Source: Lytechinus pictus (taxonomy: Eukaryota). Taken from it: DNA of 64,000 nucleotides. Each line of letters opens with the position of its first letter. The stretch's first letter is position 1. The DNA lies in the NCBI RefSeq assembly GCF_037042905.1, contig NC_087251.1, positions 25,360,001-25,424,000 on the forward strand, written 5' to 3'. Below, piece after piece: positions 1 through 31,704 of the stretch. Below the pieces are notes generated by a model. The model had not been told where the DNA came from and did not search any database. It saw only the letters and a list, made by a program, of their open reading frames with translations. A program made the translations under genes and the position numbers.

Positions 1-308
1 TTTAAATTATTTTTTCTTTATTAAAAATAGAGCTTAAAAAATGAAAATTTTCTTGCCATATTACTTTCCACCAATAGAGGGCGTACAAAAAAAATATGCC
101 CAAAATTCAAGTTTTTAAGCGCTCTGGTCAATACAAAAATTATTCTATGTTACTAATGAAAATTGAATTGCAACTGTATGGAAATTAATAATTTTGGTCA
201 CAAAAGTGATATTTTAATGATTTTTTAAAGTGTGTGCTCTGTACAGCATTGGCATGCCATAGTCCTACCTGTAGATTCCCCACAGGCAGGATGGTTGCAG
301 TGAACAAG

Positions 309-940
309 TGGGTATGACCAATGATACTTTCAGTGTTGAAAATGAAATACATCTTCCGTGCTTTTTTCTTCTTGCTGTGCTGGATAACCTCATGGTAACA
401 CTTAACAGGCACTCGCGCTCATGCCTAAGTAAGTTACAACATTAGCATCGAGTCACCATGGACAAAAGTTCTTCTTACTTAGGTCTTAGCTATCAATATC
501 ATACTCAAAGCAGCAGAATCGTAATCGTACCCAGGCAGCAGGGAGAATCCACACCGCGGCCGGGCAGCTTCGCGGGTGTGGGCTCTCTGCCTCTGGGTTA
601 GCAACCAAGCGGCACGGAAAGCATCGAACCATCATCTTCTCCGTTGTTCTCCCCCGATATTCGGGGCAGGGATCAGCGGTATCCGCTGCTCAGGTTGGGG
701 TGTCAGGTTTGTTAACAATAACACCATGAAAGCCGACAACCATGGCTGCCGTTGTATTATAAAAAAATATATAATTGGAACTTACCTTGGCTTTAGTTTC
801 AGTTATCCAGCAGTACAGTTGGCGTTGATGAATTTGACGTCCAAAACTAACTTCAGACGTGGTAAAATACTGTGTTTCTTGTAATATAATACTAGTCGCA
901 ATGGCAGCTTTGTTTGCCGTGTAAATGCATGCAGTACGTG
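309..940 (-). repeat. Subterminal unique segment of element X (inverted copy of 1822-2438)
   Basis: Reverse-complement match to 1822-2438 with a few short indels; mirrored ORFs 576-884/1870-2181 and 690-962/1807-2073. Confidence 0.9.
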
Positions 941-968
941 TATGGCGCGCCATCTGTTTCATAAAGGC

Positions 969-1800
969 GATAAACTCAGTTTATCGCCGAAAAACCTAGT
1001 TTATCAATCGAAAAACCTAGTTTTTCAATTGAAAAACTAAGTTTTTCGCCGATAAACTTAGTTTTTCGCCGATAAACTAAGTTTATCACTTGAAAAACTA
1101 AGTTTATCAAGAAAAACTAAGTTTATCGCCGAAAAACTTAGTTTTTCAATTGAAAAACTAGGTTTTTTTGATAAACCTAGTTTATCAATTGAAAAACTAA
1201 GTTTATCGGCGAAAAACTAAGTTTTTCACCGATAAACTAAGTTTTTCAATGAAAAACTAAGTTTTTCAATGAAAAACTAGGTTTTTCAAGTGAAAAGCAG
1301 AGTTTCTTGAAAAACTTAGTTTTTCGACTGATAAACTGAGTTTTTCTAGATAAACTGAGTTTTTCAAGTGATAAACTTAGTTTATCGGCGAAAAACTAGG
1401 TTTTTCAAGTGATAAACTTAGTTTTTCAATTCTGATAAACTAAGTTTTTCGAATCTGATAAACTGAGTTTTTCTAAGAACGCCATTTGTCCCATAAAGGC
1501 GATAAACTAGGTTTTTCAAGTGATAAACTTAGTTTTTCTAAGAACGCCATTTGTCCCATAAAGGCGATAAACTAGGTTTTTCGCCGATAAACTAGGTTTT
1601 TCAATTTCGATAAACTAAGTTTTTCAATTCGAAAAACTCAGTTTATCGAAATCGAAAAACTAAGTTTATCGAATCGAAAAACCTAGTTTATCGCCGATAA
1701 ACTTAGTTTTTCGCCGATAAACTAGGTTTTTCGATTTCGATAAACTAAGTTTTTCGAATTGAAAAACCTAGTTTATCGAAATTGAAAAACTCAGTTTATC
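969..1800. repeat. Array of 17-bp imperfect palindromes GAWAAAC-NNN-GTTTWTC with short variable spacers
   Basis: e.g. GATAAACTCAGTTTATC-gcc-GAAAAACCTAGTTTATC-aatc-GAAAAACCTAGTTTTTC. Confidence 0.9.
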
Positions 1801-2899
1801 GAATTTGTGTGCGGGCGCGCGCACGTACTGCATGCATTTACACGGCAAACAAAGCTGCCATTGCGATTATTACAAGAAACACAGTATTTTACCACTTTTA
1901 CCACGTCTGAAGTTAGTTTTGGACGTCAAATTCCTCAACGCCAACTGTACTGCTGGATAACTGAAACTAAAGCCAAGGTAAGTTCCAATTATATATTTTT
2001 TTATAATACAACGGCAGCCATGGTTGTCGGCTTTCATGGTGTTAACAATAACAAACCTGACACCCCAACCTGAGCAGCGGATACCGCTGAGCCCTGCCCC
2101 GAATATCGGGGGAGAACAACGGAGAAGATGATGGTTCGATGCTTTCCGTGCCGCTTGGTTGCTAACCCAGAGAGCCCACACCCGGGAAGCTGCCCGGCCG
2201 CGGTGTGGATTCTCCCTGCTGCCTGGGTACGATTACGATTCTGCTGCTTTGAGTATGATATTGATAGCTAAGTAAGAAGAACTTTTGTCCATGGTGACTC
2301 GATGCTAATGTTGTAACTTAGGCATGAGCGCGCGTGCCTGTTAAGTGTTACCATTGAGGTTATCCAGCACAGCAAGAAGAAAAAAGCACGGAAGATGTAT
2401 TTCATTTTCAACACTGAAAGTATCATTGATCATACCCAGGCCCGGGAGCGCCGGCATGCTTCGCGGGCCGGCGCCCAGGAGCTCACCGTGTATTTACCCA
2501 TACTCACAGGACAAGGATAGATTATGTTCACTATATCTATTAATCTAGCAAGATAAATTGTGAAAACAGAAATTATGCACTTACCACGATGGATGAAGGT
2601 CTATCGAGTGGTACATGTAGTATCCTGACATCGAGGCACGGACTGGAAGTTGGAACCTCAAAAAAACGAGAAGTTCTCCCAGGTCAGAGCTCACCGTGTA
2701 TTTACCCATACTCACGGGACAGAATACCTTGTGATACATCTCCTAATTTTTTTCAAAATTCATAACAAAATGGCTGATCGAGACTGGGGTAGCAGGAGAT
2801 AACTTTTCGTTTTTTGAGATTCCAGTCTGTACCTCGATGTCATGATACTGCCACACGATTAACCTTCATCCATATAATCATGGTAAGTGCATAATTTCT

Positions 2900-3800
2900 T
2901 GATTTACCTTGATGTTGGGCATAAAGTATAGAAGACTTATTTGCCCCTCTGCATCTTCTTAGAACTTGTCCTCAGTTATAAACGTAACAATTTCACATGC
3001 ATGTGTGGGTTTGGACGATTTGTGAAAATTCTGTGTCTGGGTCGAAGCGATTATACTTGGTTTTCCAGGCCTTCTCTAGATTTGATTTGAATGAATTTAT
3101 ACTGCTACTGTTTACGACCTCAGAAGGTAGGTCATTCCATAGGTTGATTACTCGTTGCGAGAAATCCCTTTGCCTGAGTGTTGAATGTGCTCTTTGCTTG
3201 ATTATTTTTCTAGAATGTCCTCTTGTCCGAGATTGAGTGTCAAGTTTGAAGAAATTTGTACAGTCTAAATCATCTATGCCCTGAATAATCTTAAACGTTT
3301 GGATCATATCCGCTCTATTTCTCCTATAGGATAACGTTGGTAGATTTAGTTTCTTCAGTCGTTCCATGTAGCTCAAGTTCTTCAGATGTGGAATTAGCTT
3401 GGTTGCTCTTCGTTGGATTTTTTTCCAGTTTTATGATGTCTTTCTTGAGATAGGGGTGCCATACACTACTGCAGTATTCTAAAGATGGTCGTATGATTGA
3501 CTTGTAAAGTTGAACCAGACCTCTTTCATCCAAATTTGAGAAGGTTCTCTTGATAAGTCCTAAGAGGCGGTTTGCTTTGGCACAAGCTTTGATCACATGT
3601 TTAGAAAATTGCAAATTGTTATCAAAGGTTACTCCCAGGTCATTTTCCTCTGTCACTTTTGGAATTTCAGAAGTGTCATCTGGTACTAGTAGGTAGCTCA
3701 TACCTGGATTATTTCTTCCAATAGACATTACTTTGCATTTCTTCTTGTTGAAAGTTAACTGCCAGTCTCCTGCCCACGACGAAAGGTTGAACAAATCATC
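2900..3800 (-). mobile_element. 5'-truncated CR1-clade LINE (RT C-terminal region and 3' end), frameshifted
   Basis: WQLTFNKKKCKVM, ENDLGVTFD, LYKSIIRPSLEYCSSVWHPY, then a shifted frame with RLKKLNLPTLSYRRNRADMIQTFKI, RTRGH, FSQRVINLWNDLP; frameshift in the T-run at ~3418-3424. Confidence 0.85.
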
Positions 3801-4220
3801 TTGTTTTCACAATTTTCTTTCCAAGTTATTGAGACCACAATCTATCCTAGTCCCATGTCTATGTTTAAATGCACTTTGGACTCCTGGGCTCTGGCCTGCT
3901 TCAGGCCAGCAGGCATGTGCAGCAGGCATGATTTTAGCTGTTTCGCTGTAGTTTTTCAGGCAAATTACACCATTATGTTTCATTCCTGACTTTCTGAGTC
4001 ATGGTACTTTCCACCAAGAAAGTGAGTAAAGTATGAGATAAATAGGATCTATATATATGTAACATACAAATGTGAAAATTTGGAACGGAAAGTGCACGAG
4101 TCAAGTGAAAGTTTTAACGCATGTATTAAGTGCCCATTACAAGCGGCTAGGTTCAATGCTTGTATTTTCTGGTAGCCACTTTTGATGACAACAAAGGGCG
4201 ATGAAATGTCCAGCTCCTAC

Positions 4221-5330
4221 GTCACTCTCAATGGGACGGTTCGCCGATGAATATTCATTGGATCATGTGCATGGGTGTGTGTGTGTGTGTGTATACTATA
4301 CCGAGTGTAAATAACGAGAGTTTTCAAATGGTGAGTGTGTATAAAACAACGTAGGGATAGGAGTTTATTTAACAGAGAATGAGACAGAGTAGTATAGTGC
4401 AGAAAATAAAAGCGTACAATGAAGTTTTACAGAAGAGGAAATAATATAAATATATGGAGGACAGTGCAAGATGAGGTAAGGCAAGTACAGTGATGTTGTT
4501 TTTTCAAAAGTATTAGTAGAGGAAATAATACAAATATATTATTGAGGACAATGTAAGATGAGATAAGGCAAACTTGTGTGCAGTGAGGGTTTTTTCAAGA
4601 GGAGATAATACAAATATGGAGGACAATGTAAGATAAGATGATCAAGGGCTCAAGGCAAACTTTTGTACAGTGAGAGCTCATCTTACATTGTCCTCTACAG
4701 TCTACATCATCATTATACATTATTTGATAAAACCTCAATGTACACGTGCCTCATCTTACATTGTCCTCTACATACCGGTATTTTTTTATCATCTCCTCTT
4801 TTGAAAAAACCTCACTGTACACTTACCACAGCTCATCTTACATTGTCCTCTTTTTATCTTATCCTTATACATTCTTTGTTTAAACCTCACTGTACACTTA
4901 ATTGCCTCATCTCATCTTACATTGTCCTCTAGATATATATTTGTATTATCTCCTCCTTTGAAAAAAAAACCTCATTGCAGACTTGCCTCATCTCATGTTA
5001 CATTGTCCTCTATAATATATTTTTTCCACATGATTTCCTCTATTACTAATACTTTTGAGAAAAAAAAATCACTGTACTTGCCTCACCTCATCTTGCATTG
5101 TCTTCCATATGTATTTATATTATTTCCTCCTCTGTAAAACTTCATTGTACACTTTAATTTTGTGCACTATACTACTCATTCTCTGTAAAATAAACTCCTA
5201 CGTTGTGTTATACACACACACACCATTTGAAAACTTTCTTTGTTTTTTACACTCGGTATTGTACACACACATGTGCACACGACCACAATCTAATGAATAT
5301 TCATCGGCGAACCGTCCCATTGAGAGTGAC
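4221..5330. mobile_element. Foldback/MITE with long inverted arms and internal short tandem repeats
   Basis: GTCACTCTCAATGGGACGGTTCGCCGATGAATATTCATT at 4221 is mirrored at ~5292-5330; internal repeats CTCATCTTACATTGTCCTC. Confidence 0.75.
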
Positions 5331-5500
5331 TATTTGAATTAGTTGATATTTTTGATAGCAGATATTTTTTTAACCAAAAGTAAGGTTTTGTGAGAGAAAA
5401 GGATTTCCAAAATTAGGAAAAACAATTATTTCAGAAAAAGGATAAATTATGCACCTAGCATTAGAATGTTTTGTTTTTATATGTGGAAACTGCACAGATA

Positions 5501-5876
5501 GTGTGTGTGTGTGTATTTGAGTTTTTGTCAGACGTGTATCAATCAGATATGATTATTTACGTCTGGGACCGACCTTTAACATCACCATCCAAAAGACGTG
5601 ACCAGGGCTCGAACCTCGAACCTCTGCATCAATTTGTAACTTCCTCACATAGCTTGGATTACAGGCGCACGCCACAACGCCCAGTTAGTGTGTGTGTGTG
5701 TGTGTATTTGAGTTTTGTCAGACGTGTATCAATCAGATATGATTATTTACGTCTGGGACCGACCTTTAACGTCACCATCCGAAAGACGTGACCAGGATTC
5801 GAACCTCGAACTTCTGCATCAAATTGTAACTTCCCCACGTAGCTTGGATTACAGGCGCACGCCACAACGCCCAGTT
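5501..5876 (-). mobile_element. Two head-to-tail ~188-bp SINE copies with 7SL-like head, B-box and (CA)n tail
   Basis: Direct repeats 5501-5686 and 5688-5876; the minus strand reads CTGGGCGTTGTGGCGTGCGCCTGTAATCCAAGCTAC...GGTTCGAATCC...CACACACA. Confidence 0.7.
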
Positions 5877-6167
5877 GAAATGCAAACATTAGTCTTCTTT
5901 CAGACGTTTAGATTTGTCTTTGTCAGAGTTAAATGCAACAAATATGCATCATTTTTTAACTGCTGCAGACACCTGTTCAGACATAGAAGATTATTTTTAC
6001 CAACAATATTCAATTTATTTGTCAAGTCCATTTAATTCAGACTGTAGATATGCATTACATGTAGGTTCATGATGATATAGAAAGTTATGTAAACTACAAT
6101 TTCAGTGATATATTTATGGTCATGAAACTGAGGATGTTTTTTCCCTCTTTTTCTTTTAACCTCCTAG

Positions 6168-8048
6168 ATTGAATAAACACAGTTACATTGGTTCTTCGGA
6201 GGCCAGCTCAGTTGATTGTTGTACTTATACAATCCCAAGAGGAATTTGCCATCCGTAATAGTTCCTTTTCGTCAACAAGCCACCTGACTTAACAAAGGTA
6301 TGTTTTATAGGGGCATATGGATCATATCTGCAAATTGTGCAAGGCTACAAAAAATACACAAAATGCACAGGGGTGAACAATTCTCAGTATTGACGTTATC
6401 ATGATGAAGTTTACAGTTTTGTAGGAAATTGTCTTCATTGTTTATTTTTGTTCGTATACATTTTAGTGTTTTCTAAGTTTGTAGGAGCAGGATGGGGATG
6501 CACAACTGACATAGAATGTAATCATGATTATAATCAAAATTGAAACACTTAGTTTCTCAATATGAAAGAATAAGTCATTGAAAAAAGAAATGTATTCTAC
6601 TAAAATTGAAAAACTTAACTTGCGTTATCAAAATCTAAAAACTTGCTTTTCGATATAAAAAACACGTCTCTCATTTGTTTACTTGTTACTGTCGCAGCTT
6701 TAATGAAACTTCCATTTAAAAGTTGTAAACAACGGGTCTCCTGGAGGATACAAGCACTTGGGCTGGTACCAACCTACACCATGGACGAGAAGAGGTTTCA
6801 TATTCAACAAGATGGATTTTCCATTTCTTTCATTAAAAGAAAGAGTACCGAATTCCAATGACTTGGGCAGTCCTTTGATCGATGAGGTAATACAGCTTCA
6901 TAGATACAATAAATAATTTTTTATGCAGTTCATGCAGGTATATCAAAGTTCAACTCTTATTTTTGGTACATGTATTTCCAAATTCTTTAAAAGAAAGAAA
7001 GAACAATCGAATTGAATGAAAAATTAACTTTTTTATATATATATATATTGTATCGTATCCGAACATCTACCCCCTGGACATCCACCTCCCGGACATCCAC
7101 CCCCCGGACATCCACCCCCCGGACATCCACCCCCTTAGGACATCTACCCCCTAGGACATCTACCCCCGGACATTTACCCCCCGGACATCTACCCCCCGGA
7201 CAATTACCCCCCGGACATCTACCCCCTAGGACATCTACCCCCGGACATTTACCCCCCGGACATCTACCCCCCGGACAATTACCCCCCGGACATTTACCCC
7301 CCCGGACATCTACCCCCGGACATTTACCCCCCGGACATTTACCCCCCGGACATTTACCCCCCGGACATCTACCCCCCGGACATCTACCCCCTAGACAATT
7401 ACCCCCTGGACATTTCAATTATTTGAGTTGTAACGTCATATTCGGGCAGCATTTCTACATAAGGAATTTTTTTTTTCTATACCTTTTCTATATCAAAGGA
7501 CCAATCATTTTACACCCAAACATGAAAAGAAAACACAAAATAACAAAAATATGTCCTCTGGAACCATTAAAAAATGAAATTCATGCATTTTATATTACAT
7601 AACTTTATTTGGCAGCTGCTCGTGTGTGTGACGCCACAAATCCAAAGGCTAAGCTTAGAATTCTAATAAATTTTTTAATATTTAACAGATTTTCCTCAAA
7701 CCTTCACCAATTTTTTTGTCTCACCTGCATAGCAGACTTGTTTTGTCCAAGTGAACTTTCATGTTAAGATTGAATGAGTTGCAATTATCTTAACTTTAAT
7801 ATATTTTAAAAAATTATTTGCTTCTAAATTGAAGACAAAGTGAAGATTGAAATGGTTTGATTTGTTTCAGTAGCAAAAGAGGTGCAGACTGCAGAGCTTC
7901 AAAATATTTGATATCGCTATAATATTGTCAGTACTCTATATCATTCTTATCATTCCAACTATTTTGAGGCCGCCTGAATCGCAAACCCTGTATGGCCAGT
8001 TTTTGTTTATGACAAACAATGATGAGGGATGGCTGAAAATCCCTCCAG
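6168..8048 (+). pseudogene. Decayed intron-split Mutator/MULE-like transposase relic (exon-like blocks 6168-6297, 6698-6886, 7871/7874-8048)
   Basis: Frame-hopping translation gives KQRVSWRIQALGLVPTY (6728-6777), KMDFPFL, NYFEAA*IANPVWP (stop where W is expected, 7975) and TNNDEGW (8012-8032). These resemble MULE motifs in the expected order, and each block has AG/GT boundaries. Confidence 0.6.
7058..7413. repeat. 15-bp minisatellite (CCGGACAYYTACCCC), about 23 copies
   Basis: Direct tandem repeat; the ORFs at 6987-7418 and 7012-7602 are artefacts of it. Confidence 0.95.
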
Positions 8049-8315
8049 GTAAGTTGGGGTTTATGTAATTGACATGGTAACCAAATATGAATTTAGTAAT
8101 TTATAACAGGATGTATATTCCTGAAACAAAGTGCAATTGTTTGATAAATGTTAATTGAATTGGCCACTATTGTAATTTTAAGATTGTCCTTATTGTTAGC
8201 TTTACATAGACACCAAAAACAGAGGATATTGTTCCCAACTGGAATTATGATATTACTATGCTATTAACATATTTATCATCATAATAATGTATCTGGTAAT
8301 GTAATGCTATCTTAA

Positions 8316-8896
8316 AGGGATGGTCCGGGCTGAAAGTATGTGTTGCTTAATAAATAGAGTAGAATTCACTGAGCAAAATGCAGAAAATTTCATCAAAATC
8401 GGATAACAAATAACAAAGTTATTGAATTTTGAAGTTTAGCAATATTTTGTGAAAACAGTCGTCATGAATATTAATTAGGTGGGCTGATGATGTCACATCT
8501 CCACTTGTTATTTTGTATTTTATTATATGAAATTAGGTTTATTCAATTTTTTTTCCTCCAAGAACTAGAAAAATTGGATTGTCAACTGAATAGTGCATTA
8601 AATATTTATTGCTGCAACTTATTTCATTATAACTAAGGGAGACATTCAGACGAGTATGAAATAATGAAAAAAATATGATTTTATGTAATAACATAAGACA
8701 ACAGAAAGTGGAGATGTGACATCATCAGCCCACCTAATGAATATTCATGACAACTGTTTTCACAAAATATTGCTAAACTTTAAACTTCAATAACTTTATT
8801 ATTTGTTATCCGATTTTGATGAAATTTTCGGCATTTTGCTCAGTGAATTATACTCTATGTATTAAGATATAAATATTTTCAGCCCGGACCATCCCT
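8316..8896. mobile_element. Kolobok-like MITE
   Basis: TTAA|AGGGATGGTCCGGGCTGAAA...TTTCAGCCCGGACCATCCCT|TTAA with long inverted arms. Confidence 0.8.
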
Positions 8897-10253
8897 TTAA
8901 GTTTTGAACCAGGATTTGATTTTTGTGGGATATAATATACATGTATTTTATATACACCTCAGTTCAATATGTGTTACAATGTAACTGTACATCTGATTAA
9001 GTTTATCTTATTGTTACTTAATAAAACCACTTTACTCCAAAGAAGTATTTTGAATATTGGGTTCTTTCACTATGAAGTATTCTTTATCCCGCTTAATATT
9101 CAACCTTTAATGAGAGCTGTGGTAATGAGTTCCATGACACGCTCTGGCGACAATTGCTCCGCTGTAAATTCCACACACTATTCAGCTTCAACCCCTAAAC
9201 CTACCATGAAACCCTATTGCAACCCTGACCCTCGAAGACAGAATTAATCCTGGGGCAATTATCGCAGGAGCAAATGTTGGGTCACCTGGTAATCAGATGG
9301 AAATGATTGGAGAGATGAAGATTAAATGGGGGGGGGGGGGGTGGTGGAGATGATGAAAGGTGGGATGGCCATGATGATGAGTGATGGAGTTGAGAAGGGT
9401 GGGGACGACGAGTGGATGGAGATGATGAGAGGAGGAATGGGGATGATGCAAGGATGGATGGAGATGATGTGGGAGGGATGGAGATGATAAAGTTTAGAGA
9501 TGAGTGGGTTACAAGAGACGAGCAGGGAGATGAGGTGGATGGAAACGATGTGGAAGGGTTGACATGAGGAGAGGTTAGAGATGAGAGGAAGGATTGAGAT
9601 GAAAGCTGGAGATGTGAAAATGGTTGGAGATGAAAAGGGAGTGATCATCATCAACTTCATCAATATCATTGCCATCACCACACCATCATGATCATCGTCA
9701 CTATCATGACCATCATAATCACCATCATTATTAATATAATTAATTTCATTATCACCACCAAATAAATTATCATTGGCGTAATGAGCCAAAGATTTTGAGA
9801 GGGACAAGATATGGCAGATTGTGCCAGTATTTTTTATTTTAATTGTGAGCAAGCAAACTTTTCTATATTTTTATTACGTAATTTTACGTTTTGATAGATT
9901 CTGACATAATACTGAAAATCTTCTCTCTTTTCTTTCTCTTATTATTTATGTTTTGTATTTTATTATCATTTTTTTTGGGGGGGAGGGGGGGGGCTCTTTC
10001 CCCCAAGACCTCACCCCCACCATCATCACCAATTTCATCATCACTATCATCAAAATACCCGTCAACACCACTGGCTTCATCATCACCATCATCGACACCA
10101 TTACTATCACTATCCTCATCATCACCACCCACCTCATCACCATCACCAGTCTATAATTATCATCTTCACCCACATCATTATCCTCATCACCACATCTTGA
10201 TCATCATCTTCACGATTATTTCATCTGTGATTTCATACATAGAAACTACAGTA

Positions 10254-11878
10254 GGGCAATTCCACAGGTTGATGGACATGAGCTTAAAAATTCAAATTCA
10301 ATATTTTCTTGAATTTTTTAATACTTTAAGTCCTTCATACATGATAGTTTCAGGAACAAAAAATAAAAAGTTTATTTTCATATCTATACTTTGGAAAAAA
10401 ATGGTCAAAAGTTGTGTCTTCCATTCTGTACCAAACTACAAGAAAAATAGTGAAAAATGAAATATGCCTCATTACCATTTTGTTATTGCAACAACATACC
10501 ACTTTATATATTTCTGAAGTTTAGAAGAGTCAAATTACCTAAAATACACAACAGCTTTTCAAGTAAATTTGTAGTACTCATTCAAAAAATGAATATTGCA
10601 ACCTGGTCAGGTGATGTAACGTGAGTAACCGAAAAAACTGACTTTGTTTTCTGAGAAAAAAATTCTTCACAGTTAATTGGTGGGATTCTAAATTCTCTTC
10701 CTTCAAACAATCTTTGACACAGTGATGACTATCAAAATCATTAAAAAGTACAATTTTTTATAAAAATTATGAAGAAAAACTGTAACGTGAGTAACCATCA
10801 TGTAATGTGAGTAACCAGTAAAAATTATGCAGTTAGGTAACATTTTCTGTGGGATGTCAAGTTTTAAGTCTCATGGTGAGTTGTGAAGTTATTTTTGATT
10901 ATTTAAAAGCAAAATGAGGGTACACCTCTTTGATGTGACTCTTTGTTCATCAAAATATCAGTGGTCATACAATCACACAAAAAATTGAATATTAGTAGAA
11001 GTATTCACAATGCGAGAGTGCATTAGTAAGACTTGGTTTCGATTAACCAAACTTTAAAGAGTGTTCGAACAACACATTGAATGTCCTTACATGTAACCCT
11101 ATCTAGGCTGGGGTATTTTGGGAGTTAATATGGCCCGGGGGGGGGGGGGGGGTGGGTGGGGCCTCCCAGGCCCCCCTTGAGATCTTGGCCATTGGCTGCA
11201 CGATCACGCCAAAAATTTGCACGCAGGTTGTCTTGGACATAATCTACAATACTATACAGTAATTTATTTCATGCAAATCGGTATTAAGCAATTATGCTAA
11301 TTTATGCATAATTAGTAAGCAAAATCATATTTTTCCCTCTTACTTCCTAATAAAGCTCCAATTGTTCCAATTTTTTTGTATAAAATCTCTTTTTGATGTT
11401 CCTAGTAATGAATTTTACACACATTGAATTTTTAATGACATTTTTGTTGTTAACTATACATGGACAAAATGTAACGTGAGTAACCGTAACGTGTGTAACC
11501 ATATAATCTGCACCCCAAGTAAAAACCATGTGTTCTTTATTTTTTTAATTATATACAAAGTTTGTCTCCCTGATATACTTCTTTGAAATGGATATAATCA
11601 ACTTTCATAAAAGCCTTGTATGAGGAGACTTTTCACTTATGTTGACTTTTCATTTTATGCATGTCCAAATCATGTAACGTGAGTAACCGACACATTCCAA
11701 AGATTTGCCAGGAGCATAATAAAATTTCCCAAGTTTTGTTTTTGTACAAAGGATAGTCAGACTGTGTACTTTGTTGTGATAAGGAGATGTTTAGTTCCTA
11801 TCAATAATAATGGAGTTACAGCTCCAAGTATGAGTCAAGGTGTCTCCAAATGTAACGTGAGTAACCGTGGAATAGCCC
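10254..11878. mobile_element. Non-autonomous DNA transposon, Sola2-like
   Basis: GGGCAATTCCAC...GTGGAATAGCCC, 4-bp TSD AGTA, repeated internal TGTAACGTGAGTAACC. Confidence 0.65.
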
Positions 11879-13744: not shown

Positions 13745-14797
13745 AACAAGTGGAGCGCCTCTGGCAGTCTCACTCGCATCAAACGATTCACACTCTGAAA
13801 CATACTATGAAATAATTATTCACAAAAACACCATTCATGTATAATGATACAATACTACGTTCATTGACATTTGACCTTGATCATGTGATCTAAAACTTGT
13901 CAGAGATACTTGATTACCCCTATATCCACATTTTATACACTATATCTATAAACTTTGAGAGGTCATGTGACCTGTACCTCACACAAGACATTCAGTGATA
14001 TTTGGTTACTCTTACATGTATGTCCAAGTTTCATGAATAAGATCCATAAAGCTCTCAAAGTTATGATGGTAATTCAACAGATACCCCCATATGGCCAAAG
14101 TTCATTGACTCTAAATGACCTTTGACTTTGGTCATGTGAAGTGAAATTCGCACAGGATGTGTAATGGTACATGATTACTCTTATGTCCAAGTTTCTTGAA
14201 TCAGATCCAAAAACTTCAGAAGTTATGATGGTAATTCAATAGATTATGGCCTAAGTTCATTAACCTTTGAACTTGGTCATGTGACCTGAAATTCGCACAG
14301 GATGTTCAGTGATACTTGATTACTCTTATGTCCAATTTTTATGAACCAGACCAATAAACATTGAAAGTTATGATGGTAATTCAACAAATACCCCAATTTG
14401 GCCAAAGTTCATTGACCTTAAATGACCTTTGACCTTGATCATGTGACCTGAAATTCACACAAGATGTGTAGTGGCACAAGATTACTCTTATGTCCAAGTT
14501 TCATGAATCAGATCCATAAACTTTTAAAGTTATGATGATAATTCAACAAATACCCCCAATTTGGCCAAAGTTTATTGACCCTAAATGACCTTTGACCTTG
14601 GTCATGTGACTCAAAATTCAAGCAGGATGTTCAACAATACTTGATTAACTTTATAGAAAAGTTTAATGAACTAGGTCCTTATACTTTCTACGTTATACTG
14701 TCATTTAAAAAACTTAACCTTCGGTTAAGATTTGGTGTTGACGCCGTCGGAAAAGCGGCGCATAAGGTCTCACTATGCTTCGCAGGTGAGACAAAAA
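13745..14797. mobile_element. Helentron/HINE-like non-autonomous element with ~125-bp internal tandem repeats (copy 1)
   Basis: Starts AACAAGTGGAGCGCCTCTGGCAGTCTC and ends GCAGGTGAGACAAAAA; internal repeats GACCTTTGACCTTGGTCATGTGAC; A-run insertion site. Confidence 0.65.
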
Positions 14798-15388
14798 TCA
14801 CTTTCAGTCACAAAAAGTTACATGTTGAAAGGTTTTACTAGAAGCTACATATACATTGCCACTACAAGCATACATGGCAGTATTAAAACTCAAGTTAAGG
14901 ATAGAGATAGAGAATTAAAAAAGACACTGTGGAGACAAAATTATCTCAAATTTACTTCTTATGCCAGGTGTAAATTAATGCAATGAGTCATTATACAGAA
15001 AAGATAAATAATATCAAGCTTCTATTTTAGCTTTGTTCCTTTAAAAAATACTTAAATGAGAGAACAAATTGTTCTTTTGTTTTACAAAAACAACATTGCC
15101 ATAAGTAACAAGTCACACTCTGAAGAAAAAAAACACAATAATGATAATAAAGCATGGAGTGGTTTTAAAATGAATTCTCTGTAAACTTTCTAAGTTCTGT
15201 CTGAACATCTTTACAAATCAATGGTTATAAAACGAACCCAACATGTATCTCAATAGATAATAAAAACCTATAGATTTTTTCTTGAAGTGTTGATCCTGAC
15301 CAATCACATACTTTCCATCAAAAACTCCGCATTCAATGAATTGTGAAAGAAAACATAACAAAGTACAACTTTACAACAAAAACAAAAG

Positions 15389-16345
15389 AAACAAGTGGAA
15401 TGCCTCTGGCCGTCTCACCTGCATCACGCGATTCAATATAGCAGCAGTGCTGATTTTGAAAACTACTATAACTCGCACAAGATGTTCAGTGATACTTGGT
15501 TACTCTTATTTCCACGTTTTATGAACTAGACCAATACACTTATAGAGATATGATGGCAATTCAACAAATACCCCCAACGTGGCCAAAGTTCTTTGACCTT
15601 AACATGACCTTTGACCTTGATCATGTGACCTGAAACTTGCACAGGATGTTCAGTGATACTTGATTACTATTATGTCCAAGTTTTATGAACTAGACCAACA
15701 CACTTTCAAATTTATGGCTGTAATTCAACAAATACCCCAATTTGGCCAAAGTTCATTGACCCTAAATGACCTTTGACCTTGATCATGTGACCTGAAACTT
15801 GCACAGGATGTTCAGTAATACTTGATTACTATTATGTCCAAGTTTCATGAATCAGATCCATAAACTTTCAAAGTTATGATGGTATTAATTCAACAGATAC
15901 CCCCAATTCGGCCAAAGTTCATTGACCCTAAATGACCTTTGACCTTGGTCATGTGATGTGAAACTCAAGCAGGATGTTCATTGATACTTGATTAACCTTA
16001 TGTATAAGTTTCATGAACTAGGTCCATATATTTTCTAAGTTATGATGACATTTCAAAAACTTAACCTTAGGTTAAGATTTTGATGTTGATTCCCCCAACA
16101 TGGTCTAAGTTCATTGACCCTAAATGACCTTTGACCTTGGTCATGTGACATGAAACTCAGGCAGGATGTTCAGTAATACTTGATTAACCTTATGGCCAAG
16201 TTTCATGAACTAGGTCCATATACTTTCTAAGTTATGCTGTCATTTCAAAAACTTAACCTCAGGTTAAGATTTGGTGTTGACGCCGCCGCCGCCGTCGGAA
16301 AAGCGGCGCCTATAGTCTCACTCTGCTATGCAGGTGAGACAAAAA
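15389..16345. mobile_element. Same family, copy 2
   Basis: Same termini; subterminal inverted GTCTCACCTGCAT / ATGCAGGTGAGAC. Confidence 0.7.
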
Positions 16346-16650
16346 CCACTCCTAGTCTCCTAATAGCTTTTCCTAGTATTTATCAAAAAACGTCTACAAA
16401 GACAATATACAATCATGTACAGTAACCAGGGCAGTATTGAGCTCTATAATACCCTATAGGCCAAGATGTTCAATTCACAATGGACTTGGAATAGATTAGT
16501 TATTATCAAAGTATAAACACAAACAAAATAATTGAAGAAGTGGCTACATACATCAAGCTATAGCTCTTAATGTTTCCTTACGCCAGATGTATGAGTTCTT
16601 ACAAAAAGGATGATGCTTTTACAAACAAAAATGTATTGTAAAGTACAGCT

Positions 16651-18075
16651 AAAGTGTGCCAGGCCAAAATCCAAAATGGCTGCCAACCCCCCCCCCCCCC
16701 CCCCCCCAATCAAAGTTTTGCCCACATATAATATGTTGGTTTTTTTTTTTGGGGGGGGGGAGCAGGCAATTTGTTTTACCTGAAATGATTACTTAAAAAC
16801 CATTAATTTTGGAGTTAAAAGGTGATTTTACCTACATTTACACATACAATACCCCCTTTAGCCCCAAATTAGGTTTCTTGTGGTTCTTGGATATTGGACG
16901 ATACCAGTTCCATAATAGCAAATAATTTCAAATAGCTATTTGCTCTTATTCTTCTACTTTGGGTTTTACGGATATTTGCGAAAAATATATTATTGGAAAA
17001 AAAAATCTTATTATCCATAGGGGCTATACAGTATACATTGTATTGTACATACTACACTGCATTCATGTATATTCATGCATTGACCATCATGACAAGGTCT
17101 GTATATAAACTATAGTGTGATACTAAATGAGTTATTGAGAAATTGAAGATACTGTATATTTTGTCTCAGATTGAAGACATATTTTGTCAATTATGCTCAT
17201 TCAGGGGGGGGGGGGAGGAAAATATCTTTAACAATGGATTAAAGTCACCCCCCCCTATTATGGCACTTACACTGGGTTTCTGATTATGGTAACTTTGCCA
17301 TCCAATGGTAACTTGCATGGAATCCTGAAAGCCATTGACCAGCGTTACCACATGTGGTATACCTGACTCCATAATATAGGATTAGAATACCAGGTAAAAA
17401 CAAGCTGCCAAATGAAGATGTGGCTGAAAATATGATGTACATGTATGTACGTACACTACATGATGTTTACATGCAATTTATGTTCATCATCGGGTTACAT
17501 CATGTTCATCAGCTAACAAGCAATCAAATTCACAAGTCACAATCTAATTCTAAACCTCAGAAGCTCACTACTACATGCATGCCACTGGTATAAGTCCTAG
17601 TTGTATGCCATGGTGGTCAATGCATGGATATGTATGCAGTGTACAGTATGTACCATATATTGTACACCGTGCCACCCCTATGGATACCGTAAATTACATT
17701 TTTTCATTTGATAAGATGTATTTCGCAAATATCCGTCAACTCAATTTAGAGGAATAAAAGCAATATAGCTATATGAAGCTGCTTACTACTGGTCAACTGG
17801 TGTCATCTAATATCCAAGAACCACAAGACGATGGAACCTAATTTTGCTTTAAAAAGGGTCTAAAAATTTGCAAATTTAAGTTAAAATCACCTCTTAACTT
17901 TACAAATAATGGTTTAAAAGAACTAATTTTAGGAAAAACAAATTGCCTGCCCCCCAAAAAAACATGAATAGACACCAAAACCAGATAAAATGACCACCAA
18001 GAAAGAAGTTGTGGCCAAAACTGTGATTTGGGGGGATTTTGGCGGCCACTTTAGATTTGGGCCCGGCACACTTTT
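16651..18075. mobile_element. TIR-bounded non-autonomous element
   Basis: AAAGTGTGCCAGGCCAAAATCCAAAATGGCTGCC is mirrored by GGCGGCCACTTTAGATTTGGGCCCGGCACACTTT; degenerate arms of ~300 bp. Confidence 0.6.
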
Positions 18076-18145
18076 TTCTCGGACCACCGTGACCAGACAC
18101 AAATAATATTGTCATTTCATGTTGAGATAAGGTTAAAGGAATACA

Positions 18146-18970
18146 AAACAAGTGGAGTGCTTCTGGCAGTCTAGCCTGCATTACGCGATTTAATATAGCA
18201 GCAGTGCTAACTTTGAAAACTACTATAAAATAATCATTCACAAAAACACCATTCATATGACATTATACCACGTTCATTGACTATAAATGACATTTGGACG
18301 GTGAATAAAACTTGTCAACTACACCCATGTCCACATTTCATTCACTCTATCCATAAGCTTTCAAAGTAATGATGGCAATTCAACAATTACCCCGACATGG
18401 CCTAAGTTTATTGACCTTTAACTGACTTTTGACCTTAGTTTTGTGTCCTGAAACTCACAGGGGATGTTCAGTGATACTTGATTACTCTTATATCCCAAGT
18501 TTTATGAACTAGATCCATAAACTTTCAGAGCTAGGATGGTAATTCAACAAATACCCCCCAACACGGCCAAAGTTCATTGGCCTTAAATGACCTTCGACCA
18601 TGTTCATGTGACCTGAAACTCGCACAGGATATTTGGTGGTACTTGATTAACCTAATGCCCAAGTTTCATGAACTACATTGTAGATCCATAAATTTTCAAA
18701 GTTATGATGGTAATTCAACAAATATCCCCAACCTGCCAAAGTTCATTGACCCTAAATGACCTTTGACCTTGGTCATGTGACCTGATACTCAGGCAGGATG
18801 TTCAGTAATACTTGATTAACCTTATGTCCAAGTTTCATGAACTAGGTCCATATACTTTTTGAAGTTATGTCATTTCAAAAACTTAACCTTGGGTTAAGAT
18901 TTGATGTTGACGCCGACGCCGTCGGAAAACGGCGCCTATAGTCTCGTTTTCTATGCAGGCGAGACAAAAA
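18146..18970. mobile_element. Helentron/HINE-like family, copy 3
   Basis: Same termini and internal repeats as 13745-14797. Confidence 0.7.
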
Positions 18971-19218
18971 CTGTTGGCACAGTAAAACCAAAAATCACCC
19001 ATTTATAGCACACTCCTATTGATAAACACAATGTATTGATGATTTTGATGATTATTCTTGTAAAATAACTTTGTAGATGAATAAGTGGTTTCCTTTTCTT
19101 TCTCATCACAAGAACACGAGTGAAATAATAAATAATTTGAGAATCGCAGACTTCACTGTCAAACTTTCTCGTAATCCTTTGTTATGGAATTATTCTGATA
19201 ATATCGACCAATTATCTC

Positions 19219-20050
19219 AATTAATCACTGCATGCCATGGTGAAGATGATCCCTTCTCTTTGTACTCTACATGTACTATGTAGCTGGAGATTTGTACCAA
19301 TAAGCCTGATGCTCGTAGATTTGTTCTCACTTTTCCTCAAACGATATACCTGTTGCTCGAACAAGAAGCGCTTTTTGAGCGATGCTGGCAGATCCGTAAC
19401 TAAATGGGCGCTATGACGAGGGGCTGTCTGGCCTTCACAATCACGGGTCGTTGAATGTAAACATGCTTTTTTGCTGATGTGACTATGAGGTCAAAACACG
19501 ATCTCAATCCATCATGGCCCCAAAATGCATTATGATTGGGTCGTGACCACGGCCGACATTCTGCTCACTTCCATGACCATGTGTACATGTAGATCTTCTT
19601 CTTGGGCTTGGCAACCTGTGGCCGTGTGGGCATTAGTATTTGAACATTCTCTCTGACTCTTCCTTTGACAGGTCAATGCTTTGAGAAACCCAACTCTTGA
19701 ATCGCATTTCTCACCACCTAGCTGTAGCACTTTCTCATCTTTTTTTTCTCAACGCCATATATGAGCAAGTTCATTTTTCTATCGTGAAACTCTAAGTTAT
19801 AGATCCAGAATTATTTGTGTCAGATCTGTCTTGACTTAAGCTTTTTTTGGCGAGCATTGCCCTTTCAGTCAATGTTAGAACGAAATTCATCCATGGCCAT
19901 ACCCTTTCTCATGGTAGTGATATTAGTATTCAGTACCGTAGGTCTAGTTTTTCTATAATCTTATCCATAGGCTTTACCAATTCTGCGGACTCCGGCTTGG
20001 CTGTTTCTGCTCACCGACAGTAGCTGTAGCAACGTTTTCGACCGAACTTT
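19219..20050 (-). pseudogene. Decayed L1/Tx1-type ORF1p-like coding relic
   Basis: Manual translation with stops and frameshifts: MDKIIEKLD, LEFHDRKMNLLIYGVE, GHRLP, DPIIMHF..MD*DRVL, LVTDLPASLKKR. This is the motif order of the LINE ORF1 RRM/CTD region. Confidence 0.55.
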
Positions 20051-20377
20051 CGCCCGACGACGCCCCGGGCTGCTCTGCTCAGGCGCTGGTATGACCCACT
20101 CACACGTACCTTGTTCATTGCACCGGCTCGAGCTCGAGTCACCGACGAAGATTGGGTTAACGTTAGGATTCCTATCCCTCAACAAATAAGGTCGCTGGCT
20201 AATTTCTTGAATCTTGCGGCATCATAATCTTTTCTATTAAATATACAGAATCATATCTTGTTCTCTGGTCCGGTAAAAAGGGGGGAAAAACTCAAAATCA
20301 AACTTAGAGCCTTCCAATATTCTCCATGTCCAGGGTCGAATGGCGCCCACTACTGGCTTACAGTGAATAACCCTGAT

Positions 20378-21298
20378 TATCGAAATTGAAAAACCTAGTT
20401 TATCGAATCGAAAAACTTAGTTTATCGAATCGAAAAACCTAGTTTATCGAATCGAAAAACCTAGTTTATCAAAATCGAAAAACCTAGTTTATCACTTGAA
20501 AAACCTAGTTTTTCAAATCGAAAAACTTAGTTTATCGAATCGAAAAACCTAGTTTTTCAATTTCGATAAACTAGGTTTTTCGGCGATAAACTGAGTTTAT
20601 CGCCTTTATAGGACAAATGGCGTCCTTATTGGACGCCATTTGTCCCATAAAGGCGATAAACCTAGTTTATCGAATTGAAAAACCTAGTTTATCGAAATTG
20701 AAAAACCTAGTTTATCAGATTTGAAAAACTTAGTTTATCGGCGATAAACTAGGTTTTTCAAGTGATAAACTAGGTTTTTCAATTTCGATAAACTAGGTTT
20801 TTCAATTCGATAAACTAGGTTTTTCAATTCGAAAAACTTAGTTTATCACTTGAAAAACTTAGTTTATCAAATAACTCTGTTTATCAAATGAAAAACTGAG
20901 TTTATCGCTTGAAAAACTAAGTTTATCGAGAAAAACTAAGTTTTTCACTTGAAAAACCTAGTTTTTCATTGAAAAACCTAGTTTTTCATTGAAAAACTTA
21001 GTTTATCAGTGAAAAACTTAGTTTTTCGACGATAAACTTAGTTTTTCAATTGAAAAACTAAGTTTATCAAGAAAAACCTAGTTTTTCAATCGAAAAACTA
21101 AGTTTTTCGGCGATAAACTTAGTTTTTCTTGATAATCTTAGTTTTTCAAGTGATAAACTTAGTTTATCGGCGAAAAACTAAGTTTATCGGCGAAAAACTT
21201 AGTTTTTCAATTGAAAAACTAGGTTTTTCGATTGATAAACTAGGTTTTTCGGCGATAAACTGAGTTTATCGCCTTTATGAAACAAATGGCGCGCCATA
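20378..21298. repeat. Right terminal palindrome array of element Y
   Basis: Same 17-bp unit. The outer part mirrors 941-1295; the inner part is arranged differently. Confidence 0.9.
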
Positions 21299-21304
21299 TA
21301 CGTG

Positions 21305-22193
21305 CGCGCGCGCGCCCGCTCACAAATTCGATAAACTGAGTTTTTCAATTTCGATAAACTAGGTTTTTCAATTCGAAAAACTTAGTTTATCGAAATCGAA
21401 AAACCTAGTTTATCGGCGAAAAACTAAGTTTATCGGCGATAAACTAGGTTTTTCGATTCGATAAACTTAGTTTTTCGATTTCGATAAACTAGGTTTTTCA
21501 ATTCGAAAAACTTAGTTTATCGAAATTGAAAAACCTAGTTTATCGGCGAAAAACCTAGTTTATCGCCTTTAATTATGAGACAAATGGCGTTCTTAGAAAA
21601 ACTCAGTTTATCACTTGAAAAACCTAGTTTATCGCCTTTATGGGACAAATGGCGTTCTTAGAAAAACTCAGTTTATCAGATTCGAAAAACTTAGTTTATC
21701 AGAATTGAAAAACTAAGTTTATCACTTGAAGAACCTAGTTTTTCGCCGATAAACTAAGTTTATCACTTGAAAAACTCAGTTTATCTAGAAAAACTCAGTT
21801 TATCAGTCGAAAAACTAAGTTTTTCAAGAAACTCTGCTTTTCACTTGAAAAACCTAGTTTTTCATTGAAAAACTTAGTTTTTCATTGAAAAACTTAGTTT
21901 ATCGGTGAAAAACTTAGTTTTTCGCCGATAAACTTAGTTTTTCAATTGATAAACTAGGTTTATCAAAAAAACCTAGTTTTTCAATTGAAAAACTAAGTTT
22001 TTCGGCGATAAACTTAGTTTTTCTTGATAAACTTAGTTTTTCAAGTGATAAACTTAGTTTATCGGCGAAAAACTAAGTTTATCGGCGAAAAACTTAGTTT
22101 TTCAATTGAAAAACTAGGTTTTTCGATTGATAAACTAGGTTTTTCGGCGATAAACTGAGTTTATCGCCTTTATGAAACAGATGGCGCGCCATA
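21305..22193. mobile_element. Terminal array of a second, oppositely oriented family member (element X), split by Y
   Basis: Near-exact reverse complement of 941-1821, including private variants (ATCTG terminal variant; AAAAGCAGAGTTTC at ~1294 vs ~21830). Confidence 0.8.
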
Positions 22194-24950
22194 TGCGTGC
22201 GCGTGTATAGATTTAGAACTACTAATAGTATCTGGGCATTTTTTGTCATAAAAATCAATAATGCGAGCGCGAAGCGCGAGCAGAAAATATTTGATTTTCC
22301 GATCTGAAAAGGGGTGAATTAAAACACTATTTCAAGTACTGTGTCGGAAAATTCTGAAGGGAGAGGGGGGGGGGGAGGTTTCTACAAAACGTCGTTCATT
22401 TTCATTACATTTCTGTCATTTGTCATACCTATAAAAGACGCAGAACCCCCAAGGAAAAATAATTATATTTGCTTCAGCACCCCCAGCATCCCCGCTTCCC
22501 AGCGGCATGGGGCAGGGCGAAAAAGACTGTTTGAATTTGTTTTGTATTGTCTGATTTGTAATTGTTCATACAAAACACGGGCGGTCGGGGCGCGCACACT
22601 TGATTGGGACTTGATTCGACGTAAAAGCTGGAAGTTTCGAGTCCAACCACACCCATAACCGCGCTCGACCACGTCTGTACCGGAGTGCATGCCGGAGCTT
22701 AGGAGGGCCAGGGATATTGGAATATGCGAAAGACAGTAGCGAATTATGATTTGTGATTGTCGGATGTGACAACTATGTACATTATAACATATTTACAAAA
22801 ATACAGGGGCCGGGGAACCTGATTTCGTGGGGGTGCTGCCTATGGAAAATAATACACGCAGCACCCCCAGGAAAATTTATGGGGGGTGCTTCAGCACCCC
22901 CGCTTCCCAGGTCCATGGCTAACGCCGAGGACATTGAATTAAGCAACTAACTCGGATACGACCTGGCGCAGATAATCTACTAGATTGAAGAGCTCCAACT
23001 TAACACCAACACCAACCAACCTGCTGGTGATGCAATTTGACAGTTTTTGCGCAAGTGATGGAATTTCGGGGTTTTTTGTATCTCAATACAAATGTAAAAT
23101 TACAAACATTATTTTTTATACATGTAGAGTAAATTAGTAAATGCAAAAATATCATAATATACAAGCAGTAATGATATTAAATGGGGTACTAAAATTTTGT
23201 GACTGATAAATCAATTGATAATTGAATTAAGTTAAAGCAGGTGTTGAGGGGCGGGGAAGCTTCAGCCCCTTTTTTCCCGGCCCAATCGTGAACAAAATAC
23301 GTACATGACCATCTGATTAATGTTTTTTTTTGTTTTTGCAAGTTTTGTTTTGTTTGTTCAGTCCCATGAGTGTCGATCCCGTGGGAGGGGGAGGTGGCGT
23401 GCATTGGTATATACCTCAACAATTCATGTGGGGATGACCTGTATTATCACCCAATAATTTACGGTAAAACATTAAAATATTCACGTCTTTTCACGATGAA
23501 TCATAATTATGGTAAGTATATGATTATGATGAAGAAGGGATAGTCTAAGATTATAAAGATGATGGTCAGATATACACATGATGATCATCTTTTTATTTAT
23601 CTTAATTCTGTTTGTGTTTATTGTTATTGAATTCAACGATTCCTTTTGGAAACAGACAAAGATGCATGGAGAAAGACAAAAAGTAAAGAATTAAAAGGAA
23701 TAAAATGTTCACCTTTTTGTTTTTTAATGTATGACATACCCTTTTCCCCCCTGAAGTTTACCATTCCCTGCAACCAAGCGCATAGTGTGTGCCCCATATA
23801 TGATTATGCACCCTTTAAATATCATCTCATTTTTGTTGGCATTCTTTACTCAGGTTTATGATGTAAAATAAGTAGAGGGGTTATAGACAACTGAAATTTA
23901 AAAGAGGGTATAAAACAGACAATAGCCCTAGTATATTTTCAGGTCACTATAAAAAAAGCTTATATACGCTTCATGCTCGCATTATTCTTTGAGAAGTACA
24001 AAGTATTGTAAAACTAAAGCTAAAATGAAATACCCATGCACTTTCAAACCGTTTCAAACATTCTGCTTCTAAAGGATTACCCCCAAGCTGAAATTGAGAA
24101 AAAAATACCTTAACTTGACGCAATGACTAGAATTCAATTTACAAAGCGCTGAAAATGATATAAAAATATGATAAAATAATTATAAGTTATTGAATTCTAA
24201 ATTTCAGTACTATTGAATGCCGTTAAGGATAGGCTATGCAATTGTATGTCATACCCATATTTTTCCCATTCTTACCATCCAATTTCATTTATCATGTACA
24301 TTATCATAATCTTGGGTGCTTTTGTCATTATTCTCCGTTTACCCCGCCGTTTACACATCCTATGTGTTGACTTGTAATTATGTAATCAGCCTAAACAATG
24401 TTGGGCTAATTCTGTATTTTATTCATGAAAAACAACTAAATTATCATTATACAATTCGTATTTTCAGGGACCTAAGAAATACAATCCCTGTTTTTAATTT
24501 CAGCACCACCACTTTTGTTTTCCGCAGAAACCTCTTTTCCAACTTAATTAGTCATTGAATACTTTGTTATTTTTCAAGACGTGTTTACATATTCAACTTT
24601 ATAATTATTGTAATCCAATCATTTTTTGGTTTATCATGTATGTATTATTATAATTATATTTGTTCTTTGTTTATCATGTATGTATTATTACGATGTGTAG
24701 ATGAAAACAAAAATGGGAAAAAAATTCAAATCAAATCAAATATCCATGTCATTATGTTATTTCTGGTATTCAGAGAAAAGAGTGTACTGAACACAGTCGG
24801 ATCAAGGGGGTCGAAGCAACCGCTGCCCCCACAATCTCGTAGCCAAGGGGACTAGGTGCCCCCAAGAATTTAAAGGTTGGTTGACATTTTATATTATGAT
24901 AAAGAGCCTATTTACCATATGACGTAATACATTAGTCATAACTTTGTTTG

Positions 24951-31513: not shown

Positions 31514-31548
<35 letters not shown>

Positions 31549-31576
31549 GATCAACATGATCATGATCATCATCATG

Positions 31577-31614
<38 letters not shown>

Positions 31615-31667
31615 ATTCATCATCATGATCATCACCATCATCATGATCATGATCATGGTGTTGATGT

Positions 31668-31704
<37 letters not shown>

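Follow-up and report, generated by a model that had tools for sequence, protein, structure and literature searches.

How did one stretch of the Lytechinus pictus genome come to hold both a 2.1-kb palindrome and a doubled array of short repeats, and what kind of mobile element is responsible? The window analyzed here is the whole stretch of 64,000 nucleotides at positions 25,360,001 to 25,424,000 of contig NC_087251.1 (G000:C7:25360001-25424000), in a genome of 811.7 Mb and 368 contigs. A first-pass annotation, made from the sequence alone, had proposed that a giant foldback-like element (hereafter Y) was inserted, with a 6-bp target site duplication, into another copy of its own family (hereafter X). 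We found that this nested insertion is real and was correctly parsed, and that both elements are, with good probability, young, giant (~18-20 kb), non-autonomous elements of the IS3EU/GingerRoot kind, moved in trans by an integrase-like transposase.

Direct reading of the sequence bore out the proposed limits of Y, which spans positions 941-21298, starts with TATGGCGCGCC, ends with the inverted terminus GGCGCGCCATA and is flanked on both sides by TACGTG (935-940 and 21299-21304). The left copy of this duplication belongs to X itself, where it lies at the inner edge of the C-end array (we refer to the terminus with a CATCTG tip as the C-end and to that with a CATTTG tip as the T-end, and take the direction from C-end to T-end as forward). 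A further terminus of this type, the third, has its last base at position 22193, with TGCGTG directly after it (22194-22199). When the 13-mer TATGGCGCGCCAT was searched for with at most one mismatch, three palindromic sites were found, which count as six matches because both strands are read; 100 shuffles yielded none.

An inverted-repeat search of positions 1-24000 revealed the following complementary segments: 936-1561 and 21573-22198 (99%), 1559-1828 and 21302-21571 (97%), 591-867 and 1896-2172 (98%), and 485-589 and 2168-2272 (99%). Given this complementarity between X and Y, a single insertion of Y explains at once the 2.1-kb palindrome and the doubling of the array, as had been claimed. 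With Y and one copy of TACGTG taken away, the joined flanks give the reverse complement of the left 1.5 kb of Y, exact to the base.

The first-pass annotation had also predicted a partner terminus of X upstream of the window, preceded by TGCGTG. A genome-wide terminus search located it at G000:C7:25342872, pointing inward, 17,129 bp before the first base of the window and directly preceded by TGCGTG, the left copy of the X duplication. X extends from this position to window position 22193 (39,322 bp, or 18,958 bp when Y and one TACGTG are subtracted) and lies on the minus strand. Its upstream part, which continues into the window as positions 1-934 (minus strand; 485-867 being complementary to 1896-2272), is colinear with reversed Y across the entire interior (~18 kb), with 96.5-98% identity per BLAST segment, a few indels of 0.5-1.6 kb and 98.97% identity when only substitutions are considered. 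The C-end of X, with its (CG)n run, array and tip, occupies positions 21305-22193 (minus strand) and is cut off from the rest of X by Y. X has a gap at the place that matches positions 2899-3802 of Y, a 5′-truncated fragment of a long interspersed element (LINE) on the minus strand, which entered Y after the two copies had diverged.

The same letters might be read as one element of 21.25 kb (941-22193) with near-perfect inverted ends of 890 bp and an imperfect duplication, TACGTG/TGCGTG. Such an element would account for the 97-99% complementarity of 941-1828 and 21305-22193 and for flanks that differ at one base and both run on into CGCG, but it gives no reason for a terminus at 21298 followed by an exact repeat of TACGTG, for a copy of 1829-2438 outside the element (309-940), or for the perfect TGCGTG that adjoins the terminus 17 kb upstream. 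The likeness of the two flanks follows from the target preference described below. It has also to be considered that the nesting is an artefact of assembly, or an inverted segmental duplication in which transposition played no part. Repeats so long and so similar pose difficulties for assembly; yet X and Y differ by ~1% in substitutions in addition to the several indels, both carry exact 6-bp duplications, and the rejoined junction matches, to the base, the sequence found in other copies. The TGCGTG at the far end of X, combined with the colinearity of its upstream 18 kb with Y, effectively rules out the single-element parse and makes an artefact unlikely, so that we attach only the slightest probability to either. 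The inverted repeats, the far end of X and the X/Y colinearity confirm that one insertion, with a 6-bp duplication, placed Y within a copy of its own family.

The ends of the nested elements have an elaborate structure. The C-end of Y (941-1828, plus strand) is composed of the tip TATGGCGCGCCATC, which contains the 12-bp palindrome ATGGCGCGCCAT, an array of short motifs and a (CG)n run that follows the array. The T-end (20378-21298, plus strand) contains an array, an internal palindrome and the tip ...AAATGGCGCGCCATA. Both arrays are built from the 17-bp dyad-symmetric motif GAWAAACYNRGTTTWTC, which occurs 74 times in Y (36 times in the left 0.9 kb, which is the C-end array, and 38 times in the right 0.9 kb) and is absent from the 18.5-kb interior. 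The motifs are mostly spaced by 19-23 bp (about two helical turns), with a few gaps of 38-70 bp (38-44 bp in the case of the few gaps of the C-end array). The two ends of Y are complementary over 232 nt (98%; 936-1167 and 21072-21303) and again over 164 nt (88%; 1142-1305 and 20933-21096), which exceeds the tens to about 150 bp described for inverted repeats of IS3EU/GingerRoot.

The T-end contains a perfect palindrome of 15+15 bp at 20611-20645 (GGACAAATGGCGTCC TTATT GGACGCCATTTGTCC), common to other copies in the form of a decayed, inward-facing tip ~0.66 kb from the T-end, and the C-end holds two fossil tips (1483-1515 and 1547-1575), terminus-like sequences within the array. Nesting of short elements, or duplication of their ends, may have enlarged the arrays. 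As a consequence of the 12-bp palindromic tip, the two ends of an element are direct repeats of one another. At C5:2775444 (G000:C5:2775250-2775650) we observed a lone 14-bp palindrome, TATGGCGCGCCATA, with TACGTA, a preferred target, on both sides; since tips of this kind act as direct repeats, it could be the relic of a whole-element loss by tip-tip recombination, or else an excision footprint.

Is the nested pair a local curiosity or part of a larger family? The 35-mer terminus is present 70 times in the whole genome, against no match for a back-to-front control, and tabulation of the flanks of all 70 termini resolved them into 34 pairs and two solo ends. Perfect 6-bp duplications border 28 of the 34 pairs, so that the paired ends and 6-bp duplications expected from the first reading of the locus do recur; among the remaining pairs, two have duplications with one mismatch, one with two mismatches, one has a duplication of 5 bp, one has a duplication offset by 5 nt, and one (C2b) has none. 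TATGG...CCATA is found at both ends in 33 pairs, the exception again being C2b (GATGG/..CCGAA).

The pairs comprise 20 long copies (14.4-27.5 kb, plus one of 66.6 kb), every one of which combines a C-end with a T-end, and 14 short, foldback-like copies (0.13-3.6 kb), which amount to two inverted arrays and little else and have no reading frame of 120 amino acids (aa) or longer. The interiors of 11 long copies, the other nine of the 20 having been examined at their tips only, are 98.1-99.6% identical (mean 98.8%), and this high identity indicates that the burst was recent. The recent mobility that had been proposed for Y is consistent with this identity and with the proportion of perfect duplications. 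Diverged relatives retain the tip, the exact 13-mer being present 87 times in the genome, against none for the control.

The long copy C2b (G000:C2:61988650-62007921) has an interior 99.6% identical to that of C1, together with mutated tips and no duplication. At its internal CACGTA, the very site that corresponds to the one at which Y entered X, 12 bp are inserted, which could be the footprint of an earlier nested copy.

We also identified a second subfamily, with the tip TATGGCGCGCCATTTGACCAATAATTCAGATAAACACTGTTTATC, in the form of abundant foldback elements of 0.4-1.4 kb (at least 359 matches, with 40 of 175 candidates scored; examples at C18:11298783-11300150 and C3:45576912-45578074). It keeps the half-sites of the 17-bp motif and has another 3-bp spacer (GATAAAC-ACT-GTTTATC). 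Nothing coding was found in a 4.8-kb pair of this subfamily, and no reading frame in an older element of 2.8 kb. A pair of 6.2 kb (G000:C4:25461918-25468269), considered as an autonomous copy, was rejected, as it holds instead a nested retroelement that, judged by eye, resembles DIRS in its reverse-transcriptase and tyrosine-recombinase motifs. Searches of the literature for the tip and motif strings matched only cloning primers, and the two 17-bp motifs were not found there; the terminus pattern had no match in viral contigs or in metagenome contigs.

Why did Y enter X at precisely this point? The 28 perfect duplications, compared with the window as background, reveal a strong preference for the target N-A-C-G-T-N, alternating purine/pyrimidine DNA centered on CG. 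CG occupies positions 3-4 of the duplication in 18 of the 28 (background 2.4%; binomial P 5e-23) and ACGT positions 2-5 in eight (0.2%; P 1e-15), the central four bases read purine-pyrimidine-purine-pyrimidine in 17 (5.7%; P 8e-15), and seven alternate fully as YRYRYR (1.5%; P 1e-7). The duplications have a GC content of 57%, against 36% for the window. The preference for alternating purines and pyrimidines parallels what the abstract of PMC4422553 reports for retroviral intasomes.

The sequence (CG)n-CACGTA is located at the inner edge of the C-end array, and Y, inverted, entered exactly that site in X. Y's own uninterrupted CACGTA (1822-1827, plus strand) represents a paralogous "empty site". 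In nine other copies the same site reads CACGTA in five (C1, C5a, C13a, C15a and C2b, the last with its 12-bp insertion after it) and CACTTA in three (C2a, C4 and C8), and the region is absent from C5b.

X and Y are not the only close neighbors. The long copies C13a and C13b (G000:C13:20817432-20861864) lie 30 bp apart in the same orientation, each with a perfect duplication of its own (GGAATG and GACGTG). Two close pairs among ~20 copies in 812 Mb compare with an expectation of 0.01 (P ~5e-5), and this clustering suggests local hopping, or else an attraction of copies to family sequence.

What do the elements carry? The interior of Y (1829-20377, plus strand) contains a 15-bp minisatellite (7059-7413), a palindromic miniature inverted-repeat transposable element (MITE; 8311-8901), satellites of 162-192 bp (14019-14610, 15470-16280 and 18349-18844) and a 1.6-kb insertion specific to Y (10254-11880). 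The first-pass annotation had described this DNA as old and host-like, which our results do not support. A 6.45-kb interior piece is present in Y and in 18 of the 19 other long copies and nowhere else in the genome, except for an embedded 590-bp MITE, and we saw no parental host locus. This confinement to long copies, together with the ~18-kb colinearity of X and Y, shows that the interior is the family's own conserved, non-coding body, made up of satellites, MITEs and a LINE fragment, and not captured host DNA. Among contig sets from sequencing runs, those of organism A (share 0.44-0.67) and organism B (0.41) contain much of an interior piece and those of organism C a small share of it (0.09-0.19), and no RNA set was listed among those containing it. 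The 590-bp palindromic MITE (8311-8901) is also found free-standing at 11 or more other loci, with 93-95% identity.

Y had been taken to be non-autonomous, and its coding capacity agrees with this. Pfam scans of its stop-to-stop frames, 216 in total, gave no match above the cut-off (none among 70 frames of at least 59 aa and none among 146 frames of 38-58 aa, with three sub-threshold matches only), and neither tRNA genes nor Rfam matches were found in the interior. Frames of at least 150 aa, sought in ten copies, fall into two groups. Some belong to LINE reverse-transcriptase insertions, with a 794-aa RVT_1 frame in the C8 copy and a fragment in C13a; the rest are shorter, at 150-218 aa. Of this second group those of Y were translated and are of low complexity, and a frame of ~216 aa recurs in other copies. 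The Y frame at 3324-3806 matches the reverse-transcriptase tail found in C13a, and the fragment at 2899-3802 belongs to the same LINE family.

Which transposase, then, could move such elements? A search of family interiors, as had been proposed, found no transposase in the 11 long copies, and an integrase-core gene in two relatives whose ends are of the same type. The first is the 66.6-kb element C4:23224456-23291106 (14.2 kb of it examined, as L090), a diverged relative with the family tips, the duplication AGCGCA, ends 80-87% like those of Y, and 44 and 46 motifs. It contains two exons on one strand, ~7-10 kb inside the element, separated by a canonical intron (AG|GTAAGT ... TTTACAG|) across which the frame is kept. 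Exon 1 encodes a helix-turn-helix (HTH) region, IS3/IS481-like and without HHCC, and then the start of the core; exon 2 corresponds to the Pfam rva_4 integrase core (E 1.5e-63).

A genome-wide rva_4 scan, in which all 113 candidates were scored, gave 85 matches, including the C4 locus and C8:1877966-1878475; the six best hits of the scan are at C8:18473867, C13:6342779, C19:4540528, C7:1971784, C12:25431373 and C11:31942349. The locus C8:1877966-1878475, of which the 3′ part was examined, is located just inside a terminus of the second subfamily. Over 254 aa its core shows 65% identity to that of C4 (E 2e-127), the acceptor site is shared, and the frame leads without a break into a family-type array at ~0.3 kb from the tip. 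The only bacterial models matched by the exons were those of IS481 and IS3, with weak scores (E 1e-4 to 2e-6) that fall far short of the cut-off, and the nearest Atlas clusters contain eukaryotic "integrase core domain" proteins with PF24764. Literature searches with the transposase-motif and PF24764 strings returned nothing relevant.

The ~165-bp satellite found in parts of Y's interior also occupies the intron of the C4 transposase gene and that gene's upstream flank (L090 2308-2791 and 3401-3996, 75-89% identical to window positions 14019-16346 and 18327-18972), which hints that the long gene-less family may have arisen from a C4-type element by gene loss.

Another route to a transposase source was rejected. 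A genome scan with the IS481 profile returned mostly long pol-like frames, and the one that was opened (L088) looks by eye like a Gypsy-type pol. A gene from the same scan, C14:1131681-1134077, an intact 799-aa frame with an rve core and an OTU cysteine-protease domain, no HHCC finger and four decayed relatives, has no inverted ends within 5.8 kb, and none of its relatives lies inside a family copy. We also noted a ~35-kb region (G000:C4:22364448-22399466) with dozens of decayed rva_4 core fragments in one orientation, some ~570 bp apart, which looks like a tandem array derived from a transposase gene, and a smaller cluster of rva_4 fragments at C18:1987931-2010468.

The first-pass annotation had been unable to place the family. 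The TATGG...CCATA ends and 6-bp duplications match the published signature of IS3EU/GingerRoot, and the integrase-core gene of relatives with the same ends points in the same direction. In the literature, complete IS3EU families are described as always having TA..TA termini and usually 6-bp duplications, GingerRoot as having duplications of 6 bp and mostly TA..TA termini, and the transposases of both as lacking HHCC (Kojima 2023, PMC10045372); fungal IS3EU termini are given as TAYGG..CCRTA (PMC12730594, section 3.1.3), and GingerRoot duplications as 6 bp and GC-rich (PMC6839031). The present family shares with these groups the GC-rich 6-bp duplications, the TA..TA (TAYGG..CCRTA) termini and the inverted repeats, and non-autonomous families are common there; the relatives that carry a DDE integrase-like transposase without HHCC are linked to X and Y by their ends. 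The probable membership in IS3EU/GingerRoot rests on structure and on the transposase of relatives.

X and Y measure 18-20 kb and encode nothing, whereas the sizes reported for GingerRoot are 3.9-12.9 kb, and each end of X and Y spans ~0.9 kb with 36-38 dyad-symmetric sites, against reported inverted repeats of 100-150 bp in IS3EU/GingerRoot. The IS3EU-related Styx/REP9 of Zymoseptoria resembles the family in its inverted ends, recent activity and multiple copies per genome (PMC8232023, PMC10853768) and in its 6-bp duplications, reported for 33 of 36 copies. As described in the same sources, REP9 differs in being a fungal element of 7.9 kb with four genes, including a transposase, and inverted repeats of 36-43 bp.

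Could another DDE superfamily with 6-bp duplications, such as the hAT6 group or Mutator-like elements (MULEs) and Foldback-type elements, be responsible, the rva_4 genes being passengers or parts of nested elements? The ends are indeed foldback-like arrays of short repeats with a period of 20-23 bp, and X and Y have no transposase of their own. Foldback (FB) of Drosophila and TU of sea urchins likewise have ends of tandem short repeats and short derivatives that amount to two inverted arrays. FB makes duplications of 9 bp and TU of 8 bp, their tips and transposases differ from those of the present family, and its duplication is 6 bp. MULEs, with a MULE transposase, usually make duplications of ~9 bp, and no MULE domain was found in the frames scanned. 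hAT tips have the form YARNG, which the tip TATGG, identical with the published IS3EU form, does not fit. Animal hAT families with 6-bp duplications do exist (hAT6, Kapitonov and Jurka 2007, cited in section 3.1.2 of PMC12730594), and subterminal repeated motifs are common in hAT, but no hAT domain was found in any frame scanned and no hAT transposase is linked to the family. Since duplications of MuDR/IS256 relatives range from 4 to 10 bp according to PMC10045372, their length alone is not decisive against a MULE. The C8 integrase-core frame enters the array ~0.3 kb from the tip, which is hard to square with a nested foreign element, and we regard an origin from hAT6 or MULE/Foldback-type elements as improbable.

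Still less probable is that X and Y are gene-less derivatives of Polinton/Maverick elements, moved by a Polinton integrase. Polintons share with them the 6-bp duplications, a size of 15-20 kb that comes close to 18-20 kb, and the long terminal inverted repeats, and their integrase is also rve-like. Their termini are of the AG type, as given in PMC6839031, and they carry pPolB, capsid and protease genes, whereas the ends here are TA..TA and the 216 frames hold no remnant of pPolB, capsid, protease, ATPase or integrase. In the linked transposase the N-terminus is an IS3-like HTH, and the 10 kb examined there contain no Polinton gene. The first-pass annotation had already set Y apart from Polintons, on account of its ends and the absence of pPolB and integrase, and this distinction holds.

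Several observations weigh against the placement of X and Y as IS3EU/GingerRoot-kind elements moved in trans. No transposase was found in X, in Y or in any of the 11 long copies examined in full, and a tblastn search with the relatives' protein detected no remnant of the transposase core in the window. The link between the rva_4 gene and X/Y consists of shared tips, half-sites and some shared satellites. The C4 gene could belong to an unrelated element nested in the 66.6-kb copy, of which 14.2 kb was examined (the exact 13-mer revealed no other family tip inside that copy), and of the C8 gene the 3′ part was examined. We found no paper that ties Pfam rva_4 to IS3EU by name. PMC6839031 reports GingerRoot to have no nucleotide-specific target preference, and Styx/REP9 is likewise described, in PMC8232023, as having no clear target consensus, whereas the preference for N-A-C-G-T-N is strong in the present family.

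A mechanism can nevertheless be outlined. The integrase-like DDE transposase of the relatives (HTH N-terminus and rva_4 core, without HHCC) would move X and Y in trans, either by cut-and-paste or by copy-out-paste-in transposition. Its HTH region would bind the 17-bp dyads, the presumed binding sites, and the bound protein would bring the two ends of the element together and integrate them, with a 6-bp stagger, into flexible alternating purine/pyrimidine DNA. A further reading, which joins target choice, clustering and tip structure and which we put forward only tentatively, as rather unlikely, is that the family homes to itself: the (CG)n-CACGTA at the inner edge of the C-end would be an optimal copy of the preferred target, so that copies tend to land in or near each other, and the tip palindrome would permit whole elements to be lost cleanly, with a 14-bp relic such as that at C5:2775444 left behind.

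For genome annotation, a confusing 40-kb region that contains a palindrome resolves into two ordinary insertions. Elsewhere in the window, at 31408-32002, a (CAT)n tract switches to (ATG)n and forms an imperfect microsatellite palindrome of ~500 bp.

We regard the family as new, non-autonomous, unusually large and well populated, and as a probable member of a known, little-studied superfamily rather than a new kind of element; IS3EU/GingerRoot are called "poorly characterized" and published only in Repbase in PMC8232023. Its unusual traits are its size, the 36-38 dyad-symmetric sites per end and the clustering of copies. It offers a clean natural data set, with 34 paired copies, a palindromic target preference and ~37 candidate binding sites per end, in which duplications remain exact even around elements of 18-20 kb and around one of 66.6 kb. 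This makes it useful for understanding how integrase-like transposases choose their targets, and it bears on transposon vectors for large cargo. If the self-homing reading is true, the family would be an IS3EU lineage in which safe-harbour targeting is built in and whose cis-acting end apparatus, of unusual size, can mobilize cargo of 18 to 66 kb.

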